DNA from: a virus
Virus record (IMG/VR): IMGVR_UViG_3300045988_136221
Coordinates: 89,223 to 153,222 of that record
Reading direction: 5' to 3' (one strand)
Length of the DNA stretch: 64,000 bases
Each line of letters starts with the position of its first letter. The stretch's first letter is position 1. This document shows, piece by piece, positions 5,572 to 64,000 of this stretch. A model generated the notes under the pieces. It searched no databases, had not been told where the DNA came from, and saw only the letters and a list, made by a program, of their open reading frames with translations. Both the position numbers and the translations under genes were made by a program.

Positions 5572-5894
5572 AGAAGGATATGTTTACAAAAGAAGAGCGA
5601 TTATTCATATGGAAACAAGTATGTGATATAATCGATAGGTCAGAGGATGGGGAATACATATGCATTGCATTAAGAAATGTAGTATTTTATTTTTTCAAAA
5701 CACATAAAGAAATAAAAATTATGAGTTTAGACGAAATGGTGAGAATATATTTCCCGGAATTGAGGGCAAGGAGAAGTATGGCTACAGAACCAGAGGAAAT
5801 ATGGAGGATATATGGATGGTTTGGTTGTATTAGTCCAGAAACGAAGGAGGTAAGACTGAATATTGTAAAAGATATCATAAAAGAATTAGAATAG
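5568..5894 (+). CDS. hypothetical protein (108 aa)
   Basis: ORF track; overlaps previous stop. Confidence 0.5.
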   Translation: MKKDMFTKEERLFIWKQVCDIIDRSEDGEYICIALRNVVFYFFKTHKEIKIMSLDEMVRIYFPELRARRSMATEPEEIWRIYGWFGCISPETKEVRLNIVKDIIKELE

Positions 5895-10703: not shown

Positions 10704-10870
10704 CATACTCCCATAGCTAAAGCGAATGGGATTCTTGGATACAAACGTATGGAACCCCTGCATTTCTGCAACCGGAATTACCCATACTTTCCAATTCGGA
10801 AATGCCCTTCCGAAGTATATTACGGGCTGCAAGAACATCACGGTCGTTTACCGCTCCGCACGCTGGGCAT
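10700..10870 (-). ncRNA. putative TnpB omegaRNA (reRNA) overlapping tnpB 3' end
   Basis: By established TnpB biology the guide RNA scaffold is encoded at the 3' end of tnpB and the right end. Here the right end terminates ~17 nt past the stop. Extent not verifiable by eye. Confidence 0.3.
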
Positions 10871-11856
10871 ACCCACGTGCGGTCGCGTAACGACAATCCT
10901 TTATTAATGCAGCCACATTCGCAAGTTTTGGAAGAAGGATACCATTTGTCAATCTTGTGTATCGTTACTCCATACTTTGAAGCAACATACGTAAGTTTGT
11001 TAATAAAAGAAGAATGACTGAGGTCAGAAACTTTCTTTCCCCACAAACGTTTCATTCCTTCAATGTTTAGATCTTCAATGAAAATATAATCATACTGTTT
11101 GCATAACTGGTGTGCTAATCCCCATTGAAAATCCGATCGAAGATCGTTTATTTTACGATACGCTTGTTGTAGTTCAAACAGTCTCCTTCTTCTATTATTG
11201 GATCCTTTCTTTGCATTAGAAAACCGTTTGTTTAGTTTTCTAATCTTGTTTTGATATTGTTTGAAGAATAGTGGAGAATCAATTTTGTTCCCATCACTTT
11301 TAGTTAGATAAGTTTTCAGGCCAAAATCCAATCCGATAGATGCACCATCATGTGTCTTTCTATAAGAGTTTATAAGATTATGATCTGTAATAATTATCAG
11401 ACTATATCGATGACATGTTTCTCTAACTATTCTTATTTGTTTAACATTACCTTCGTAGACCCTACTGTATGAGAATTTAAATCGTTTCTTTCCTTTGTTG
11501 ATTGTTAAACAATTACCATTCAGGGTAAACCCTCCTTGTTTGAAAACAAAAGAGTTAAAACAATCAGCTCTTTTGAACTTAGGTGGTCGTTTAGCCAACT
11601 TCTTGAAGAAACGATTGTATGCTGAGTCTAACCTTTGAATAATTTCTTGTGTTGTTTGGGAATGAAGAAGATTTCTCTTAATTCTTTTAGAGAAATGCTT
11701 TTGCATCTTACCAACTGGTATGTATTTTCCAAACAGTTTGTAATATCTACGTTGTAGGGATAAAGCATGATTCCATACAAAACAGCATTCGCGAAGCATC
11801 TTATCAAGATACTTCGTTTTCTTGGAATGATAGATGTTGTATTTGTATGAAATCAT
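10717..11856 (-). CDS. tnpB: TnpB (IS605 OrfB-family RNA-guided nuclease)
   Basis: 379 aa; C-terminal zinc finger (CECGCINKG..CPACGAVNDRD) and RuvC-III-like motif (DVLAARNILRKG); D..E RuvC segments (GLDFGLK; IFIEDL); typical TnpB architecture. Confidence 0.85.
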   Translation of the reverse strand: MISYKYNIYHSKKTKYLDKMLRECCFVWNHALSLQRRYYKLFGKYIPVGKMQKHFSKRIKRNLLHSQTTQEIIQRLDSAYNRFFKKLAKRPPKFKRADCFNSFVFKQGGFTLNGNCLTINKGKKRFKFSYSRVYEGNVKQIRIVRETCHRYSLIIITDHNLINSYRKTHDGASIGLDFGLKTYLTKSDGNKIDSPLFFKQYQNKIRKLNKRFSNAKKGSNNRRRRLFELQQAYRKINDLRSDFQWGLAHQLCKQYDYIFIEDLNIEGMKRLWGKKVSDLSHSSFINKLTYVASKYGVTIHKIDKWYPSSKTCECGCINKGLSLRDRTWVCPACGAVNDRDVLAARNILRKGISELESMGNSGCRNAGVPYVCIQESHSL

Positions 11857-25797: not shown

Positions 25798-25876
25798 AAA
25801 AAATAAGCTAAATTAAGTTATTTAAAATCTTTTTTATTATCAAAAGACATATCTTTGTCCAAAAAAAACAAACAGG

Positions 25877-26128
25877 ATGGAAGAAAAAGAGATTAAAGAA
25901 GCCATGATTGAAGCCCTGACACATTTGGAGGGGTGTAAGTATTTCGTGGCTACGATAGTAAATGAAGAGGAAAGAAGATTTGATATGAGCCAACGAATGT
26001 CACAGCATCAATTGGCCTTAGTTATAAAAGGTATCTTATCTAATAATGAGATGATGATGATGGATGTTTTGCAGTGGTGCTCTGCCAGACTTAAAAATAA
26101 TATAGATAAAAAGAAGTCAACTAATTAA
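25877..26128 (+). CDS. hypothetical protein (83 aa)
   Basis: ORF track. Confidence 0.5.
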   Translation: MEEKEIKEAMIEALTHLEGCKYFVATIVNEEERRFDMSQRMSQHQLALVIKGILSNNEMMMMDVLQWCSARLKNNIDKKKSTN

Positions 26129-26139
26129 ATATTAATACA

Positions 26140-26610
26140 ATGAATCGCTGGTTTGAAATTACGGTAAAAGCCGAGATTGACAATATCGAGAACGGCAAAA
26201 AAAAGAAAGTAAATGAAAAGTATTTGGTAGATGCCTTATCTTACACAGAGGCAGAGTCAAGATCTTATGAAATCCTAAAGGGGTTGTATAAGGTGTTTGA
26301 TGTTGTCAAGATCAATCCTATTAAAGTGTCGGAAATCTTCTTCAACGGAGAAGCTGAGTACTGGTATAAGTGTAAGGTGAATTACATTACACTGGATGAA
26401 AAGAAAGGTAAAGAAAAGAAAACACCATGCTATATGTATGTCCAGGCCGGCAATCCAAAAGATGCTGAGGCTGTGTTAACTAAGGGGATGCAAGGTACGT
26501 TAGGCGACTGGAATTGCGAAGCTATTGCAGAAACGAAAATCATTGAAGTATTTAAATACGATCTGCAAAAAGGTGTAGAAAAATTGGGAGAAAAGAAAAC
26601 TGATGAGTGA
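26140..26610 (+). CDS. hypothetical protein (156 aa)
   Basis: ORF track. Confidence 0.5.
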   Translation: MNRWFEITVKAEIDNIENGKKKKVNEKYLVDALSYTEAESRSYEILKGLYKVFDVVKINPIKVSEIFFNGEAEYWYKCKVNYITLDEKKGKEKKTPCYMYVQAGNPKDAEAVLTKGMQGTLGDWNCEAIAETKIIEVFKYDLQKGVEKLGEKKTDE

Positions 26611-42546: not shown

Positions 42547-44028
42547 ATGGAAAAGATGGATGATATTATTATACCAAAGGGGGAAAGCGTGGTTATTAAC
42601 AAAGATGTTCATGCTTATAAAACATTAGTAGCCCAAAAAGGACTTAAGGTAGTGTGTGAAAAAGATATCAAAAAGGGAGATAAGGAGGCTACGCTGTCGT
42701 ATGAAGGTCGTATGGAAATCGATATACCAATTGAATATATACTGAAGAGTAATAATATCCTTTTCAAAGAGGGAGAATTGCTTTTTGTTAAAAAGGATTA
42801 TTCTTTTAAAGATAACATTGTTCCTGGAGGAGCTATAGTTGAGTTGGCGGAAGATGTCTACAATGTAGATGTTATGGCTGTCATATATTATGAAGGGGGA
42901 AAGACTTGTATGCCCTTAGAATTATTAGAACCTGTTAGTTCAGAAAAAGGCAATAGTGAAAAAGAAGGGAAATCAGTGAAAAATGACATCATTGATGATA
43001 AACTACGATGGGATTTGCTTCCGATGGAAGAAATTGAGGACATTGTAAAAGTCTATCATGCCGGAGCTAAGAAATATGGGCCTAATAATTGGCAGAATCT
43101 TGACAATGGCATAAATAGGTATAGAGCTGCAAGTCAAAGGCATATGATGGAGTATTTAAGAGGAAATAAGATAGATGAAGAAACGGGGTGTTATCATCTT
43201 GCGCAATGCGCATGGAATATTATTGCTATGTTATATCTTGATAAACATGGTCACGGTATAAATGTAGATAAAGCTAAAACTAATAGATTTATAGAAAAAG
43301 CAACACTGGTCCATAATGGACGATATGATTACTCGAACGTTGTTTATATAAAAAACGATGAGAAGGTAGAAATAATATGTAAGACTCATGGATCGTTTAT
43401 GCAAACACCTCATAATCATTTAAACGGAGCAGGATGCCCAAAATGTCATATAGATGGAAATAAAAGACTTATATGCGGAGTAGGAATAAATGATTTTTAT
43501 GGGAAAAAGACAGATAGAAGTTATAATGTATGGATGCATTTAATAAAAAGATGTTATTCTAAAAATAAAAAAGGAGCATATAAAGATTGCACCGTGTGCG
43601 ATGAGTGGAAATTATACAGCAACTTTAAGAAATTTTATGATGATAATTGCAAAAATGACACATTCCACTTAGACAAAGATATACTTGTTCAGGGGAATAA
43701 AATATATTCTCCAAATACATGCTTATTCGTGCCAGAGGAAGTAAATGAGACTATAACGTCAGAATGGAGTGATAATAAATCATTACCTGTAGGTGTAACA
43801 ATGACAAAACTTGGTAAATTTAGAGCAAGATGTTGTGATGGATCCAAAAATGGCAAACAGAAACATCTTGGAGTATTCGACACACCTGAAGAAGCATTTG
43901 AGGCGTACAAAGAGGCGAAATTAAATAGACTGAAAAAGTTAGCGGAAAAATATGTAAAAAGTGGAGATATAGACAAAAGAGTGTACGATGCCATATTAAA
44001 CTATAAAATATTACCATTTAAAGCTTAG
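42547..44028 (+). CDS. multi-domain protein: N-terminal region with RWDLLP-containing domain + HNH-type endonuclease + AP2 DNA-binding domain
   Basis: C-terminal LPVGVTMTKLGKFRARCCDGSKNGKQKHLGVFDTPEEAFEAYKEAK is a textbook AP2 domain; preceding Cys/His cluster (CKTHGSF..HNHLNGAGCPKC; CTVCDEW) is HNH-like. Middle LRWDLLPMEEIEDIVKVYHAGAKKYGPNNW resembles the phage dATP/dGTP-pyrophosphohydrolase N-terminal domain as I remember it (unverified). Confidence 0.45.
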   Translation: MEKMDDIIIPKGESVVINKDVHAYKTLVAQKGLKVVCEKDIKKGDKEATLSYEGRMEIDIPIEYILKSNNILFKEGELLFVKKDYSFKDNIVPGGAIVELAEDVYNVDVMAVIYYEGGKTCMPLELLEPVSSEKGNSEKEGKSVKNDIIDDKLRWDLLPMEEIEDIVKVYHAGAKKYGPNNWQNLDNGINRYRAASQRHMMEYLRGNKIDEETGCYHLAQCAWNIIAMLYLDKHGHGINVDKAKTNRFIEKATLVHNGRYDYSNVVYIKNDEKVEIICKTHGSFMQTPHNHLNGAGCPKCHIDGNKRLICGVGINDFYGKKTDRSYNVWMHLIKRCYSKNKKGAYKDCTVCDEWKLYSNFKKFYDDNCKNDTFHLDKDILVQGNKIYSPNTCLFVPEEVNETITSEWSDNKSLPVGVTMTKLGKFRARCCDGSKNGKQKHLGVFDTPEEAFEAYKEAKLNRLKKLAEKYVKSGDIDKRVYDAILNYKILPFKA

Positions 44029-55986: not shown

Positions 55987-56292
55987 TTAATACAAATCTT
56001 CTGAATACAACTGTTCTCTAATGGCATTCCTATCTACCACCATCTCCTGATTATTGTTTCTAACAAGTTCAGACGCTTCCTCTCTTGTTAAAAACCGATT
56101 CTTGCTTGTCAAAAATCCTTGAACACTGCGGTTTTTATGGGCTATACCGTATGCCGCAAGTTGAGATAGTATAGAGGGGTGTCTCAATCCACAGAACACG
56201 GTTCCGGATGGTATATTGGTGGGCTGATGGGGACGCTTCTTGCCGTCCTGCACCCAGATGGCGGCGCATATTACTATTTCTTTATTATACAT
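55987..56292 (-). CDS. hypothetical protein (101 aa)
   Basis: ORF track. Confidence 0.5.
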   Translation of the reverse strand: MYNKEIVICAAIWVQDGKKRPHQPTNIPSGTVFCGLRHPSILSQLAAYGIAHKNRSVQGFLTSKNRFLTREEASELVRNNNQEMVVDRNAIREQLYSEDLY

Positions 56293-56329
56293 GATACGTT
56301 TTTCTATTAAATTTATTAAATCTATTCAT

Positions 56330-57562
56330 TTACTTTAATATAATCGGATGCCTCTTCCCTCTAATGAGTTTAAACTTTTTGCGTGAAACATCTTTTGAAT
56401 TTTCTCCGTTGAAATCCCTGATATTGAAACTCCCTGATTTTCTCCTTCCATAAACAAAACATATTTTATTATTATACAACACTTTATCAAACAACCTAAA
56501 ACCAAAAACCTCAAAAGGAGCTTGATTGTTTTTCTTCTTTCCTCCTTTTAAAATTTTCATTTTATGTATTTGCCTATTATGCCTACGAATTAAACGTTTT
56601 AAATATTGACATCCGATTCGTTTCGCATTAATGTTCTTAGAAATGACAAACGCGTCGGATGTATGGGATTTTTCAATCCCGTATTTAATCCGATTATGTT
56701 TCGTAATGTAACCAAACGTCATAGAAACTCTGTCGTATCTGGATCTCAGTTCTTCATACAACTTCCATTTCATGATCCCCATTACGGCCGCGTCGCGAAG
56801 CGACTTGCCTCTTCTGATTTTTAAATCTATATTACCTTTATGGTATTCTTTGTGACAAGTTTCACATAAGGTAATAAGATTAGAAGGGGAATCACCTCCC
56901 GTTTTTCGGGATTCAAGATGATGGACATTAAGGATCTTATCTTTTGACTTCCCTTTACAATACTGACATTTATGCCCATCCCTTGCTAAAACATACTCCC
57001 TTGTGTTCCAAAACTCAAGTTGATCACCTTCCTGGTATTCTTTACCTAATATTTCAGGATTCTTAATCTTTTGAGTATCAAATTGAGCTACTTCAATAAC
57101 AATACGAGATATTGGTAGTATAGAGCAAATATTTTCAATAACACGAATATGAGCGTCTACTTTGTATTTCACCGAAGGTGCTATCCATCCTGAACGCTTG
57201 CTTTTTATTCTATTATTAAAACGAGGTTTTCTATATCTTAACCTGTTCCGTCTTGTTTTCCGTAGCTCTCTTCTGGTAGACAAAAGATCTACGATATCAT
57301 TTCTAAGAATTACTTCACTGCTGTAAAGTTCTTTGCTTTTCGTTGTAGCTGATAGACCAACGTGTTTGGTCCCAGCATCAACGCCTAACACAATTTCTTG
57401 TTTGTAATCAGATGTGACGTACGTTAATTTGATGGTAAACGGACATAAGCTCACAACAACTGCCTTGTTTTCTTTAAGCAGTCGTCTTACCTTACCATGC
57501 CTTGTTGTAGGCATCATAGGTTTACCATCTATGTCTTGTACGTACACCATATCTACAAACAT
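56330..57562 (-). CDS. iscB: IscB (OMEGA RNA-guided RuvC+HNH nuclease, Cas9 ancestor family)
   Basis: N-terminal PLMP domain (DGKPMMPTTRHGKVRRLL); RuvC-I LGVDAGTKHVGLS; Arg-rich bridge helix TRRELRKTRRNRLRYRKPRFNNR; RuvC-II RIVIEVAQFD; HNH HKCQYC...LNVHHLESRKTGGDSPSNLITLCETCHKEYH; RuvC-III HTSDAFVI. Confidence 0.85.
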   Translation of the reverse strand: MFVDMVYVQDIDGKPMMPTTRHGKVRRLLKENKAVVVSLCPFTIKLTYVTSDYKQEIVLGVDAGTKHVGLSATTKSKELYSSEVILRNDIVDLLSTRRELRKTRRNRLRYRKPRFNNRIKSKRSGWIAPSVKYKVDAHIRVIENICSILPISRIVIEVAQFDTQKIKNPEILGKEYQEGDQLEFWNTREYVLARDGHKCQYCKGKSKDKILNVHHLESRKTGGDSPSNLITLCETCHKEYHKGNIDLKIRRGKSLRDAAVMGIMKWKLYEELRSRYDRVSMTFGYITKHNRIKYGIEKSHTSDAFVISKNINAKRIGCQYLKRLIRRHNRQIHKMKILKGGKKKNNQAPFEVFGFRLFDKVLYNNKICFVYGRRKSGSFNIRDFNGENSKDVSRKKFKLIRGKRHPIILK

Positions 57563-57852
57563 TTTTAATGTTTATTCAACATAAGTCAGGAATATTTCAT
57601 CCTGTTAGTACCCATCGCCAATGTTATAAGAGGTTTTGATGCAAGCAACACTGTTTCGCAAATACACTACTCCTGTTTAATCGCTTGCCTTAGAGCTACG
57701 GACTTGGGCAAACATCCGTAGGTAACTATCTATTCTCAAATAACGTAGCCTTCGTTTCAAGGCTTAGGCTAATATCCGGACCATTTATGGTACATTAAAA
57801 CCTTATAATGAAATTATATTGTTTTAATGTTATTTCGGATATACAAACAAAC
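57563..57852 (-). ncRNA. putative IscB omegaRNA region (5' of iscB)
   Basis: 290-bp ORF-free region immediately upstream of iscB with several stem-loops (e.g. ctacgga..tccgtag; agcctt..aaggct). By established IscB biology the omegaRNA is encoded directly upstream of the ORF. Ends not determinable by eye. Confidence 0.45.
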
Positions 57853-58620
57853 TCATCCCGCAATCTCCCAGTCATTAGACATAATATCATGTTCGGTTGG
57901 ATTCCAATTTGATGCTACTTTTTGACCTGTATCTACCATCAATATATTTACGTCAGATTCTGCAATAAACATACAGATATACTTTTTACCCCAATCGATT
58001 CTTTTTATCTTACGACCTAATTTAAGCTGTTCTAAAGCCTTTTCGAATGTCATGCCATGACGAGGCAGTTTGAGATACTTTTCAAGTCTGTCGGCGGCTT
58101 CATTTGGTGTATGGCCATCATATTCGAAAGCGGTTTCTCTTTCAGGAACATCAAACAAATCCCAGTATTTGCTTTTATAGTGATTAGATACCTGACCGGT
58201 AGGCAGGATCGCCATCACAATAAACCAGTCATCAGAACCGAAGCATTTTTCTCCGTCGCTGTGTCTCCTTGATTTGCAAACTTCAACCTGTCCGTTTCTG
58301 GCTAATAGATTAAAGAAGGCAGCGTTATACAACATGCGGTACCGATACAATTCATTGAAAGTATGGTATCCGTCAGAAACTTCTCCCATGTCTCCTGGTT
58401 CTGCTTCAGGTTTAGGATGATTAGGATAATAGTAGTCCACTGATGCTTCTAACACAGACTTGATGTGTTCTACTATCCTCGTAGCATCATCATGTCTTAA
58501 GAAATACTTGAATCCTTCAACGAATTTAATATCTTCATTGATTGTTGATTCGAACTCTTCTTTTGTCATCACTCCAATTACATCTTTTTTAAAATCGTCT
58601 AATCCCATAATTTGTTTCAA
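57853..58620 (-). CDS. two-domain protein with C-terminal DUF2829 (Tad2-like) domain
   Basis: C-terminal ~65 aa MTFEKALEQLKLGRKIKRIDWGKKY...HDIMSNDWEIAG matches my recollection of the DUF2829 pattern (M.FeeAl..lK.GkkvrR.gW ... DWEiv), the family of Thoeris anti-defence Tad2. N-terminal 190 aa unknown. Confidence 0.5.
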   Translation of the reverse strand: MKQIMGLDDFKKDVIGVMTKEEFESTINEDIKFVEGFKYFLRHDDATRIVEHIKSVLEASVDYYYPNHPKPEAEPGDMGEVSDGYHTFNELYRYRMLYNAAFFNLLARNGQVEVCKSRRHSDGEKCFGSDDWFIVMAILPTGQVSNHYKSKYWDLFDVPERETAFEYDGHTPNEAADRLEKYLKLPRHGMTFEKALEQLKLGRKIKRIDWGKKYICMFIAESDVNILMVDTGQKVASNWNPTEHDIMSNDWEIAG

Positions 58621-58631
58621 ATTAATTGTTA

Positions 58632-59264
58632 CTATACTTTCTTTATCCTACAATACAAATCCCATAAGAACTTAGCAGAAAAAACATCCCATACATTATT
58701 CTTCTGCAAAAGATCTACTTTGTTAGCAAACCAAGACCATATGGGACCATCATATGAAGAATCAGATGATTTCCCCAATCCAATTTTCTCCATTTCATTC
58801 GCCACATCAGAATAAGGATCGAGCTCGACTCCCCTAATCATGTTAATAACATCATCCTTATCTAACGTAAATTGAAACTGCTCCTTATTAGACAGATCTT
58901 GATTTATTTTGCCCGTTACAAACCACTCTTTATCATAATATAGCTTAATAAGCTTCTTTACTTTCTTTTCAAGAAAAGGAAACTCTTGTATGACTTCCAT
59001 AAAATTAGATTCGTCGGCTTTGCCTTCTATGAAGATAACAGTTTTGCTTCCAGGTCTATGATCGTCTAAGCTTGCCGGGATGCCAAATATCGTCCATCCT
59101 TTAAACTCAGCTATCTTAAAACGCATAACGTCAAACACATTATAGAAATCATCACAATCTATAGATTCTATTACCTTAACATCCTCTTCCGTAAATTTAC
59201 CTCGTATTGGAATAACGTGATGACCAGGGCAGCCATCGGTTCCGAAATATGCGATTCTAACCAT
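58632..59264 (-). CDS. hypothetical protein (210 aa)
   Basis: ORF track. Confidence 0.5.
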   Translation of the reverse strand: MVRIAYFGTDGCPGHHVIPIRGKFTEEDVKVIESIDCDDFYNVFDVMRFKIAEFKGWTIFGIPASLDDHRPGSKTVIFIEGKADESNFMEVIQEFPFLEKKVKKLIKLYYDKEWFVTGKINQDLSNKEQFQFTLDKDDVINMIRGVELDPYSDVANEMEKIGLGKSSDSSYDGPIWSWFANKVDLLQKNNVWDVFSAKFLWDLYCRIKKV

Positions 59265-62613: not shown

Positions 62614-62985
62614 TTATGAAACTTCTATTTCATAATGCGAAGCCTCTGTTTCAACTATCAATCTTCCCTCTCCTTCGAACTCAACACTGTCATTTCCCGG
62701 ACCAGTAACAAAAGGGAAATCAGATACGGATGTTACATAATCTCCAGAACCACCGGAAAAAGACTGACTTTTACTTTGTTTGTAATTGATAGTCAATTGT
62801 GTTTTACCTGGCTGAAGAGTTCCAGATAAATTTTTAGTATAAGTGGTGGTAGTCGTAATATTCCCATTTTTATAGCAATACATTATAAAGGTAGTAACCG
62901 GACTCTTTTTAATATTACTATCTGGACCTTCATGTTGACATACTCCCATCGCTAAAGCAAATGGGATTCTTGGATACAAACGCAA
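62614..62985 (-). CDS. hypothetical protein (123 aa); annotated N-terminus runs into TnpB element right end
   Basis: ORF track; first ~20 codons lie inside the sequence shared with the other IS copy (from 62925), so true start may be an internal Met. Confidence 0.4.
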   Translation of the reverse strand: MRLYPRIPFALAMGVCQHEGPDSNIKKSPVTTFIMYCYKNGNITTTTTYTKNLSGTLQPGKTQLTINYKQSKSQSFSGGSGDYVTSVSDFPFVTGPGNDSVEFEGEGRLIVETEASHYEIEVS

Positions 62986-64000
62986 GAAACCCCGATGTTG
63001 CTATCGTTGGAATTACTCTTGCTTTCCAATTCGGAAATGCCCTTCCGAAGTATATTACAGGCTGCAAGAACATCACGGTCGTTAATTGCACCGCACGCCG
63101 GGCACACCCACGTGCGGTCGCGTAACGACAATCCTTTATTAATGCAGCCACATTCACAAGTTTTGGAAGAAGGATACCATTTGTCAATCTTGTGTATCGT
63201 TACTCCATACTTTGAAGCAACATACGTAAGTTTGTTAATAAAAGAAGAATGACTGAGGTCAGAAACTTTCTTTCCCCACAAACGTTTCATTCCTTCAATG
63301 TTTAGATCTTCAATGAAAATATAATCATACTGTTTGCATAACTGGTGTGCTAATCCCCATTGAAAATCCGATCGAAGATCGTTTATTTTACGATACGCTT
63401 GTTGTAGTTCAAACAGTCTCCTTCTTCTATTGTTGGATCCTTTAACAGATTTAGAAATCCTTTTATTGCATTTCTTGATCTTGTTTTGATATTGTTTGAA
63501 GAATAGAGGAGAATTAATTTTGCTACCATCACTTTTAGTTAGATAAGTTTTCAGACCAAAATCCAATCCGATAGATGCACCATCATGTGTCTTTCTATAA
63601 GAGTTTGAAGGATTATGGTCTGTAATTATAATCAAACTAAAACGTGAACAGGTTTCTCTAACTATTCTAATTTGCTTAACATTACCTTCATAAGGTCTAC
63701 TGTATGAGAATCTAAATCGTTTCTTTCCTTTGTTAATTGTTAGACAATTACCATTCAGGGTAAAACCTCCTTGTTTGAATACAAAAGAATTGAATTTCTC
63801 CGGTGATTTAAACTTAGGAGGTCGTTTAGCCAACTTCTTAAAGAAACGATTATAAGATTCATCAAGACGTTCAAGTATTTCTTGTGTTGTTTGGGAATGA
63901 AGAAGATTTCTTTTAATTCTTTTGGCAAAATACTTCTTCATTTTGCCAACTGGTATGTATTTTCCAAACAGTTTGTAATATCTACGTTGTAGGGATAAAG
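62925..64000 (-). mobile_element. IS200/IS605-family (tnpB-only) element, copy 2 (runs off window end)
   Basis: ~90% identical by eye to 10700-11780 including antisense frames. Diverged, not an exact duplicate. Confidence 0.55.
62952..64000 (-). CDS. tnpB: TnpB, second copy (5' end beyond window)
   Basis: Protein nearly identical to copy 1 through the RuvC and zinc-finger region (…WVCPACGAINDRDVLAACNILRKG…), divergent C-terminal tail. Reading frame still open at position 64000. Confidence 0.8.
   Translation of the reverse strand, partial: LSLQRRYYKLFGKYIPVGKMKKYFAKRIKRNLLHSQTTQEILERLDESYNRFFKKLAKRPPKFKSPEKFNSFVFKQGGFTLNGNCLTINKGKKRFRFSYSRPYEGNVKQIRIVRETCSRFSLIIITDHNPSNSYRKTHDGASIGLDFGLKTYLTKSDGSKINSPLFFKQYQNKIKKCNKRISKSVKGSNNRRRRLFELQQAYRKINDLRSDFQWGLAHQLCKQYDYIFIEDLNIEGMKRLWGKKVSDLSHSSFINKLTYVASKYGVTIHKIDKWYPSSKTCECGCINKGLSLRDRTWVCPACGAINDRDVLAACNILRKGISELESKSNSNDSNIGVSCVCIQESHLL

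Follow-up and report, generated by a model that had tools for sequence, protein, structure and literature searches.

A phage-borne IscB element as a candidate RNA-guided homing element between co-infecting phages

An iscB gene situated among phage genes raises the question of whether the phage uses an RNA-guided nuclease for its own benefit, or whether it merely carries an insertion sequence along. After excision, a transposon with IscB or TnpB is known to be restored through the action of its own nuclease. The DNA analysed here is a stretch of 64,000 nt (hereafter the window) covering positions 89,223-153,222 of the IMG/VR record IMGVR_UViG_3300045988_136221, one strand read 5' to 3'. Element boundaries were set by comparison with phage csAssE-Sib and 79 IMG/VR loci, and the resulting features are collected in Table 1. 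The evidence favours a selfish ISC-type element that is resident in a phage lineage and whose guide is directed at the allele found in sister phages without IscB.

Table 1. Features of the IscB element and its immediate flanks, in window coordinates
Feature	Positions	Strand	Size and basis
Whole IscB element	56293-57842	-	1550 nt; boundaries from relatives
Guide-encoding flank GGATGAGTTTGTTTGT (5' to 3')	57843-57858	-	16 nt; just outside the element
omegaRNA scaffold (HEARO RNA)	57604-57842	-	Rfam RF02033
Linker, scaffold to iscB start	57563-57603	-	From sequence
iscB ORF	56330-57562	-	410 aa as listed; Pfam, solved-structure matches, dN/dS
TAM-side terminal segment (LE in IS convention)	56293-56329	-	37 nt past the iscB stop codon
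Flanking ATG at the TAM position of the ancestral insertion (CAT on +)	56290-56292	-	

A sequence-only reading had assigned the complete IscB domain series to the 410-aa ORF, and profile and structure matches confirm it as a predicted IscB, a small Cas9 ancestor, with intact nuclease residues. The RRXRR family of Pfam (PF14239) was matched across the whole model (1-174 of 174, E = 8.5e-60) and HNH (PF01844) at residues 199-242 (E = 5.5e-10), while solved IscB structures were matched at 1e-43 to 6e-42 with residues 5-337 aligned. The order of the parts is a PLMP/RRXRR N-terminus, RuvC-I, an Arg-rich bridge helix, RuvC-II, HNH, RuvC-III and a C-terminal region of about 72 aa. Translation probably starts at Met5 (57550); the resulting 406 aa are the length found in most relatives. 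OgeuIscB (7XHT, 7UTN, 8CSZ) aligns from PLMP through RuvC-III at about 1e-42, with GKPMMPT as the counterpart of its GKPLMPT and the RRELRKTRRNRLRYRKPR stretch aligned to its bridge helix. The catalytic D/E/H/H/D set is conserved: D62, E157, H300 and D303 occupy the catalytic positions of OgeuIscB in the alignment, and the HNH domain retains H214/H215, N228 and a CxxC...CxxCH motif. All of these residues, together with the four zinc cysteines, are invariant in 74 of 74 full-length relatives.

Compared with OgeuIscB, the phage protein is shorter by about 90 aa, does not have the insertion of about 30 aa after the bridge helix, and its C-terminal 72 aa or so fail to align to the TAM-interacting domain. 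The profile alignment to solved IscBs ends near residue 334 and does not cover the C-terminal region, of which residues 338-410 had no match at E <= 10 among PDB sequences. This region is conserved among copies. An AlphaFold model computed from 17 near-identical sequences reached a pLDDT of 38, too low for the model to be of use.

The ORF-free, hairpin-rich stretch upstream of iscB had been proposed as an omegaRNA. When it was searched with the IscB omegaRNA covariance model, HEARO (RF02033) was matched over its complete length (model 1-211) with 101.8 bits against a gathering score of 83 (E = 2.8e-21), and by this match the stretch is a structured RNA gene of the omegaRNA type. Its fold as RNA scores z = -3.36, and none of 200 shuffled sequences folds as well. 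The conserved scaffold sequence starts at model position 1, and in copies from many different sites it begins at exactly base 57842, whereas the 5' flank differs between all insertion sites. The guide was expected just beyond the element end on the minus strand, and this is where the flank in Table 1 lies. A terminator-like hairpin, CAGGATGAAATATTCCTG, is found in the linker at 57587-57604 and overlaps the final scaffold base. No intrinsic terminator was found between the upstream gene and the scaffold in a promoter/terminator scan that was otherwise uninformative, its sigma-70 consensus being one that may not suit the host.

Comparison with IscB-less relatives, which the earlier reading had proposed as the means of fixing the element ends, resolved both of them. 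The first scaffold base (ATATCCG...) is one end, RE in the IS200/IS605 convention: homology with csAssE-Sib and other relatives reaches the guide flank and then gives way to the omegaRNA scaffold. The opposite end reads ...AAAAACGTATC, and an identical TAM-side terminal sequence adjoins differing downstream genes at other type-A sites. In alignment, window positions 56296-57840 stand in place of positions 5586-5845 of locus L001. The place of the element is taken by a 91-aa gene in csAssE-Sib and in many IMG/VR relatives, and simple insertions of 1549-1551 nt are seen in relatives at other sites.

The guide flank of the element overlaps the stop codon (57853-57855) of the upstream gene, which is a WDGH and Tad2-like fusion on the same strand, and also covers the first five codons of the 91-aa CxxC gene that the element replaces. 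On the other side, the flanking ATG doubles as the start codon of a 101-aa downstream gene (55987-56292). The site had been described as lying between structural-looking genes and a Tad2-like gene. This is roughly right, the neighbours being a 2138-aa protein annotated as structural in csAssE-Sib and the WDGH/Tad2-like fusion. A literature search on csAssE-Sib returned no relevant papers. The two TnpB genes also reported for the window are both real (10717-11856 and 62952-63941, both on the minus strand).

A tblastn search with IS608 TnpA, covering the 64-kb window and 1.95 Mb of related loci, detected no TnpA. The probe was validated against 2A6M, and it evidently works, since many other phages carry a TnpA that it matches. 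The element is therefore taken to be non-autonomous, and the best reading is a canonical ISC-type element (IS200/IS605 superfamily) with iscB and an omegaRNA and without tnpA. Most ISC elements are reported to be non-autonomous (PMC13565253, PMC9755519). The hairpin at the omegaRNA-side end folds strongly as DNA (z = -5.3), whereas the 110 nt of the TAM side have no significant hairpin (z = +1.5 and 0.0).

In the window, the element has not simply been inserted but takes the place of a gene body. The expected ancestral state, in which the end of the 91-aa gene is followed directly by the element, was absent from all 223 loci. Replacement could have come about by recombination between two direct copies, as supported by tandem copies in one relative (L040) and a chimeric element in another (L022), or by a one-ended deletion mediated by TnpA.

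Phage-borne IscB is already known, and this locus is a further case: more than 16% of HEARO contigs are reported as viral or prophage-derived (PMC9755519). The present family was matched in 342 IMG/VR stretches, with one close match among 185,579 bacterial and archaeal species genomes. By these counts it is large and nearly confined to phages, and it resides in a lineage of human-gut phages of about 140-160 kb. A recent hitch-hiking from a host chromosome is not the case for this element. A contig labelled 'Vibrio olivae' (L199) was considered as a clue to the host and rejected; it repeats the phage sequence of site A3, probably through contamination.

Copies of the gene are under purifying selection, with a median dN/dS of 0.146 against 73 relatives. 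A possible pseudogene status in related genomes was also checked: 74 of 80 copies are intact, so that the gene is not a pseudogene. The 79 loci hold at least 11 distinct sites on the TAM side and about 25 junctions on the guide side. Several contigs have two copies, the direct copies of L040 lying 2.67 kb apart.

In relatives with an empty site, ATG follows directly after the guide-matching flank in 18 of 18 independent junctions, for which the chance probability is about 5e-31. The TAM-side end adjoins ATG in every copy, and four sites (A3, B4, L079 and a 364-nt solo element) have the plain order of flank, element and ATG; insertion is exactly next to the TAM and without target-site duplication. 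From these insertion sites we infer that the TAM is ATG (CAT on the transposon top strand). At 10 of the 11 distinct sites the ATG opens a co-oriented ORF of 83-657 codons. A start codon as TAM explains how the element is accommodated between phage genes and leaves them intact.

Targets of the guide were sought in other phages, as had been suggested, by requiring an exact 16-mer match in the same genomic context in IMG/VR; the guide length of 16 nt is an assumption taken from characterised IscBs. The scan returned 3 filled sites, about 46 empty sites with ATG, about 25 with TTG and 1 with ATA. The complete target with its ATG is thus intact in the allele that is without the element and absent from the filled allele, where ATA, from the start of the scaffold, comes after the guide sequence instead. 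No second target of the guide was found within the 64-kb window. Guides of relatives match intact targets with ATG in the window at 57988, 58371, 59168, 25946 and 25861. About one third of the empty sites have TTG for ATG and may be resistant to cutting. The change is synonymous and affects the first TAM base. Synonymous sites in the vicinity vary too, however, and only exact guide matches entered the scan; TTG alleles as an escape from cutting are a lead, not a result.

We consider it probable that this non-autonomous IscB element acts as an RNA-guided homing element between co-infecting phages, for which we infer transcription, cleavage and homing as follows. Read-through from the co-oriented WDGH/Tad2-like gene would enter the element and yield an omegaRNA, of which the 5' 16 nt (GGAUGAGUUUGUUUGU) would come from the flank and the remainder would be the HEARO scaffold. 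IscB with this RNA would recognise double-stranded DNA carrying a guide match followed by a 3' TAM of ATG. The phage's own copy would be immune, because the guide sequence there precedes ATA. Element-less sister phages carry the exact target with ATG at the start of the 91-aa gene. In a mixed infection the HNH and RuvC sites would cut the sister DNA, and the IscB-bearing genome would serve as the template for repair. Repair would replace the cassette of the 91-aa gene with the element, which amounts to homing as in the free-standing homing endonucleases of T4-like phages. Fresh insertion sites would always be immediately 5' of an ATG; they would need TnpA in trans and are apparently rare.

The population offers an opportunity for such homing. 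Mosaicism among relatives is on a sub-kb scale, and whether a site is filled or empty is not linked to the haplotypes around it, which is indirect support. However, filled sites are few (3 of about 75 contigs retaining the guide sequence), and such a minority is not what would be expected from a strong drive near fixation. Filled/empty polymorphism and mosaicism would also arise by ordinary recombination without any nuclease bias, and a search for a co-conversion gradient around the element found a mosaic identity profile and no clean gradient.

Several other explanations have to be weighed. IscB might act in restorative homing only, so that a TnpA in trans excises the element, IscB re-cuts the vacated site and a sister copy restores it, with no transfer between phages. 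This is the experimentally established role of IscB and TnpB (PMC10055086), and the exact insertion at the TAM without target duplication points to TnpA chemistry, but neither the missing TnpA in the DNA searched nor the TAM-side end without a hairpin agrees with it. Furthermore, excision here would not recreate the guide's target, because the body of the 91-aa gene, the source of the ATG, has been lost and no empty genome has the two flanks side by side. This last point is weak and not decisive, as the guide would match the donor joint followed by ATG-TAT, where the TAM is still ATG. On balance we regard restoration as the sole role as unlikely. The nuclease might instead be kept as a weapon that destroys the DNA of co-infecting relatives and not for copying itself. 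The target is present in many relatives, their guides in turn match window targets with ATG in what resembles mutual targeting, and an intron endonuclease is reported to mediate competition of co-infecting viruses (cited in PMC13565253). The guides are, however, set by the adjacent DNA, as in every ISC copy, with no sign of target selection, and the flanks are 90-100% identical, so that a cut would be expected to lead to repair from the donor and hence to homing. We find the weapon reading doubtful as the main explanation, and it is compatible with homing.

Another alternative is an inert relic, in which an insertion sequence undergoing decay is passively carried along. This would fit the failure to find TnpA in the DNA searched and the few relatives with a truncated ORF or a lost omegaRNA (L018, L019 and L003). 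It is very improbable in view of the low dN/dS, the invariant catalytic residues, an omegaRNA of full length that scores above the gathering threshold, and the hundreds of copies at many sites. Even less credible, to the point of being nearly dismissed, is a domesticated regulator of the kind known from the TldR descendants of TnpB, binding DNA and leaving it uncut. Nothing specific speaks for it beyond the precedent of TnpB domestication (bioRxiv 10.1101/2023.11.30.569447); the nuclease residues are all intact and conserved, and the guide is derived from the flank and different at every site.

Within the homing explanation, we tentatively suggest that these IscB elements are RNA-guided gene drives whose guides may be re-programmed by loss of DNA beside the omegaRNA end, an idea we hold to be possible and not the likelier outcome. 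At the window's site the TAM-side junction is constant, while at least 10 different guide-side junctions occur among relatives, nearly all of them where intact genomes read ATG. Guides of deeper junctions still find their target in genomes with shallower junctions, including the window (57988, 58371 and 59168), and not the reverse. If true, this would be a one-way dominance series in which the element progressively replaces the 91-aa, Tad2-like/WDGH and 210-aa genes, and start codons as TAM would permit clean swaps between successive gene starts.

The closest characterised system is the ISGst5 IscB of Geobacillus stearothermophilus (Meers et al. 2023, PMC10055086). In both, the omegaRNA is upstream of iscB, the scaffold is derived from RE, the guide is taken from the RE flank and the TAM adjoins the opposite end. 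Also alike, the upstream gene is co-oriented, and self-cutting is prevented because the element's own end departs from the TAM by one or two bases. The experimentally defined TAM of ISGst5 is TTCAT, which in iscB orientation reads ATGAA 3' of the target, and the ATG rule of the present element agrees with it. The TAM here is apparently shorter, with the ATG alone invariant and usually the start codon of the next gene. The present elements further differ in residing in phage genomes, in having no cognate TnpA found nearby, and in their predicted nuclease of 406-410 aa. For OgeuIscB the TAM is given as NWRRNA (PMC12660989), as against the putative ATG here.

HEARO and IscB loci on viral contigs have been surveyed by Goltsman et al. 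2022 (PMC9755519), where few are linked to TnpA, the present locus being one such case; the sections consulted report no guide-target relations between phages, insertion-site rule or population polymorphism. The intronless homing genes of T4-like phages (SegF, SegB, Mob) are alike in that a nuclease gene lies between conserved genes, is present or absent, and targets the allele lacking it; they are expected to spread by double-strand-break repair in mixed infections, with neighbouring DNA converted. They are unlike the present element in that here a guide RNA and a 3-nt motif recognise the target, not a protein, and transposon ends are present.

In a 2026 review, the spread of such elements between co-infecting phages is still called theoretical (PMC13565253). 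This locus with its hundreds of relatives could be a natural test system for phage-to-phage OMEGA homing: nuclease and guide RNA genes are intact, guide, target and putative TAM are defined, and filled, empty and possibly resistant (TTG) alleles coexist in a heavily recombining phage population. If active, the protein would be a compact nuclease (about 406 aa) whose ATG TAM is easily aimed at gene starts. Additionally, the Tad2-like, anti-defence-like gene is eroded by the element in some relatives, and this links the dynamics of a selfish element to the accessory gene content of phages.

The sequence-only reading took a 410-aa ORF for an IscB with the complete domain series and the 290 bp upstream for its omegaRNA, and both assignments were borne out. 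The ORF product was covered by the whole PF14239 (RRXRR) model of Pfam (8.5e-60) and also contains PF01844 (HNH, 5.5e-10). Its best matches among solved structures were IscBs (11HR, 9LIQ and OgeuIscB 7XHT/7UTN; 1e-43 to 8e-42), with alignments spanning the PLMP motif (GKPMMPT, versus GKPLMPT in OgeuIscB), RuvC-I, the arginine-rich bridge helix, RuvC-II, HNH and RuvC-III. For the last ~72 residues, where a putative TAM-interacting domain would lie, no alignment to the solved chains was obtained. The catalytic positions are occupied by D62, E157, H214/H215, N228, H300 and D303, and the catalytic residues and four zinc cysteines were unchanged in 74 of 74 full-length relatives. Since most relatives begin at the equivalent of Met5 (406-aa protein), 57550 is the likelier start of iscB. 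An AlphaFold model from a shallow alignment was unusable (pLDDT 38).

The HEARO family (RF02033), the RNA now named IscB omegaRNA (PMC13565253, PMC10055086), matched within the 290 nt upstream of iscB at 101.8 bits against a gathering score of 83 (E = 2.8e-21), and was the sole Rfam family detected anywhere in the window. The region folds with a z of -3.36, and 0 of 200 shuffles folded as well. HEARO matches over the gathering score were present in every sequence type, and the omegaRNA was lost in a few copies (loci L018 and L019 of relatives). Two 364-nt derivatives without iscB (L021 2003-2241, L069 7460-7826) consist of a full HEARO omegaRNA (L021 2003-2241, L069 7460-7704; 99-113 bits) and a terminal segment. 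They sit at an ATG as full elements do, and IscB is presumably provided to them in trans.

Element ends were taken from IscB-less relatives and IMG/VR copies. The nearest deposited phage, csAssE-Sib (OR575929, 151 kb, human gut), is 90-95% identical in both flanks but lacks the element and has no IscB homologue at all; where the window has 56296-57840, it carries 260 nt with most of the gene of a 91-aa CxxC protein. When copies were aligned at the omegaRNA side, the conserved part always began at the equivalent of 57842 (ATATCCG...), which is HEARO model position 1, and the DNA 5' of it was different at each site. The TAM-side end of every copy directly precedes an ATG. Because of this conserved start and the ATG at the other end, the element is delimited by sequence comparison to 56293-57842 (1550 nt), and simple insertions at other sites measure 1549-1551 nt, in agreement. 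A strong DNA hairpin (z = -5.3) is found at the omegaRNA-side end; folding gave none at the TAM-side end. Upstream of the element, 57853-58620 (-) encodes a fusion of WDGH (PF25311, 1.5e-36) and Tad2-like anti-Thoeris (PF11195, 2.5e-12) domains, of which some relatives with junction variants retain only the 5' part.

Features of the IscB locus, guide-side junctions at its TAM-side position, and the second hot spot (plus = top strand in the IS200/IS605 convention for TAM, LE, RE and RE flank)
Feature	Position	Strand	Remark
iscB ORF	56330-57562	minus	uninterrupted, 410 aa
omegaRNA scaffold, Rfam HEARO (RF02033)	57604-57842	minus	full-length match
TAM, CAT	56290-56292	plus	
LE	56293	plus	
RE	57842	plus	
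RE flank	57843-57858	plus	
Guide-side junction, 91-aa gene start			L006
Guide-side junction, inside 91-aa gene			window
Guide-side junctions, inside Tad2-like/WDGH gene			L012/L014, L007, L016/L020
Guide-side junctions, inside 210-aa gene			L013/L017
Guide-side junctions, further upstream			L002, L022, L010
Second hot spot	25861-26142	plus	83-aa gene 25877-26126 intact in window

IscB elements take their guide from the flank 5' of the scaffold (PMC10055086); by analogy, the predicted guide of the window element is 57858-57843, GGATGAGTTTGTTTGT. The WDGH/Tad2-like gene's stop codon overlaps with this flank, as do the first codons of the lost 91-aa gene. At all 18 independent junctions for which an empty site could be identified in another genome, the empty site has ATG immediately after the 16-nt flank, followed by a variable fourth base. 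Given ATG at ~2% of window positions, the chance of this is ~5e-31. The filled allele reads ATA or ATT at this position, which is the scaffold start. The same logic is described for ISGst5: its TAM is TTCAT on the transposon top strand, hence ATGAA 3' of the target when written in iscB orientation, and the end of the transposon itself is one or two bases off this TAM (PMC10055086). At 10 of 11 distinct sites a co-oriented ORF of 83-657 codons starts with the flanking ATG, and the element is therefore placed exactly before gene starts. Such placement leaves the downstream gene unbroken and allows transcription of the element from the upstream gene. At the one site without a long ORF at the ATG (L079 5275-5506), the IscB copy lies directly upstream of two tRNA genes.

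The sequence-only reading also proposed a search for guide matches in host and competing-phage genomes. We scanned the exact 16-mer across IMG/VR (at least 118 stretches) and counted alleles in the same genomic context. Among the matches listed were 3 filled sites, ~46 empty sites with the 16-mer followed by ATGTTCAAA, the exact match plus ATG, ~25 empty sites followed by TTGTTCAAA and 1 site with ATATTC in this place. In the TTG form, the first TAM position carries a synonymous change, GTA to GTT. A search of the window for another match to its guide with ATG behind it found none. Guides of relatives match intact targets plus ATG in the window at 57988 and 58371 without mismatch, and further targets plus ATG at 59168 and 25946 (1 mismatch) and 25861 (2 mismatches). 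The target (equivalent of 57843-57852, in L081-L198) lies inside a (TTTG)n tract, where ATG, TTG and alleles with 1 or 2 extra 4-nt units, which shift the reading frame of the 91-aa gene, occur side by side. These may be escape from cutting, or plain microsatellite variation.

About 20 loci have the window's exact TAM-side junction, combined with at least 10 different guide-side junctions. The latter fall at an ATG of intact genomes, a few small secondary deletions aside. Compared in L005-L020 with window 57843-59264 (-), the variants shorten or remove the 91-aa, WDGH/Tad2-like and 210-aa genes. The second hot spot shows similar behaviour: in relatives (L046, L048, L056, L057, L064 and others) the 83-aa gene is swapped for an IscB element that reaches exactly from the gene's own start codon, or from an ATG within it, to the next gene's ATG at 26140.

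The variants most likely arose when two direct copies, inserted at neighbouring ATGs, recombined. Tandem copies 2.67 kb apart occur in L040, with single-copy relatives for both sites, and L022, at the window's TAM-side junction, is chimeric, combining one omegaRNA type with the body of the other. The same products would be expected from a one-ended TnpA reaction in which RE is joined to DNA 3' of another CAT. Neither the window nor 1.95 Mb of related loci yielded a TnpA with a probe which was validated against PDB entry 2A6M and picks up TnpA in 122 other phage records. By recombination or by TnpA, each event would re-programme the guide, and deeper junctions are predicted to target genomes with shallower ones but not the reverse; that the series acts as a ratchet is speculation.

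A protein scan found IscB relatives (82-98% identical) in 342 IMG/VR stretches, nearly all of them from 76-160 kb contigs, several of which have two copies; thousands of further relatives are in the protein database. The gene is not a degenerate pseudogene in related genomes, as 74 of 80 copies are full-length and dN/dS against 73 relatives has a median of 0.146 (range 0.06-0.23). Among 185,579 bacterial and archaeal species, one genome each, a close relative (86%) is on 1 contig only, and the next best matches are at most 59% identical. This 20-kb contig, L199 (NZ_JBHMEP010000019.1, 'Vibrio olivae' CECT 8064), holds IscB, omegaRNA and the flanks of phage insertion site A3; it was for this reason rejected as a host signal and is probably phage contamination of the assembly. 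With one contaminant-like contig and the rest at or below 59%, the family is resident in the phage lineage. As to whether the locus is a hitch-hiking ISC element, it is of ISC type without linked TnpA, and it did not arrive recently from a host chromosome.

Both TnpB genes of the sequence-only reading are real, at 10717-11856 (-) and 62952-63941 (-), with Pfam OrfB_IS605 and Cas12f1-like TNB domains; neither adjoins a TnpA gene or an Rfam RNA family. csAssE-Sib has a 77% identical TnpB at two places. ORF 42547-44028 (+) contains PF18909, the N-terminal domain of dATP/dGTP diphosphohydrolase, and matches AP2 weakly (23.9 bits, under Pfam's 33.3-bit cut-off). The PF18909 domain could hint at modified DNA bases in this phage, which might affect nuclease targeting; no PurZ-like match was found among the ORFs scanned. 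A 566-aa SPFH/Band 7 and flotillin-domain protein is encoded at 35054-36754 (+).

We propose that the element homes between phages. Upstream gene and element share a strand, and no terminator was found between that gene and the scaffold; therefore read-through transcription would yield an omegaRNA whose guide comes from the flank. Once loaded with this RNA, IscB would cut DNA having a guide match plus ATG, namely the IscB-less allele of sister phages, sparing the phage's own copy. Repair from the IscB-bearing genome would then convert the cassette of the 91-aa gene into the element. Relatives are mosaic at sub-kb scale, and flanking haplotype and filled or empty state are unlinked, so recombination in mixed infections is frequent. 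Right beside the element, the empty locus L088 shows 100% identity to the window; L016 does so over 2.75 kb downstream, yet its junction differs. Cleavage, RNA production and biased inheritance are what we infer. Free-standing endonuclease genes of T4-like phages home likewise, and 'non-restorative homing' into co-infecting phages is listed as theoretical in a 2026 review (PMC13565253). The few filled sites among guide-keeping contigs and the common TTG variant argue against a strong drive.

The locus is a known kind of element: it agrees with published IscB/ISC elements (PMC10055086, PMC13565253) in its protein, its RNA, the place of the guide, the TAM logic and the absence of a linked TnpA. 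According to PMC9755519, IscB/HEARO has already been seen on viral contigs (>16% of HEARO fragments). New in detail is a family that resides in phages and occupies many sites in many copies. Also new are a start-codon TAM, read from insertion sites, that allows clean gene-start-to-gene-start swaps, and naturally occurring alleles, filled, empty and possibly resistant, with exact matches between guide and target. With these three, RNA-guided homing from phage to phage can be tested directly.
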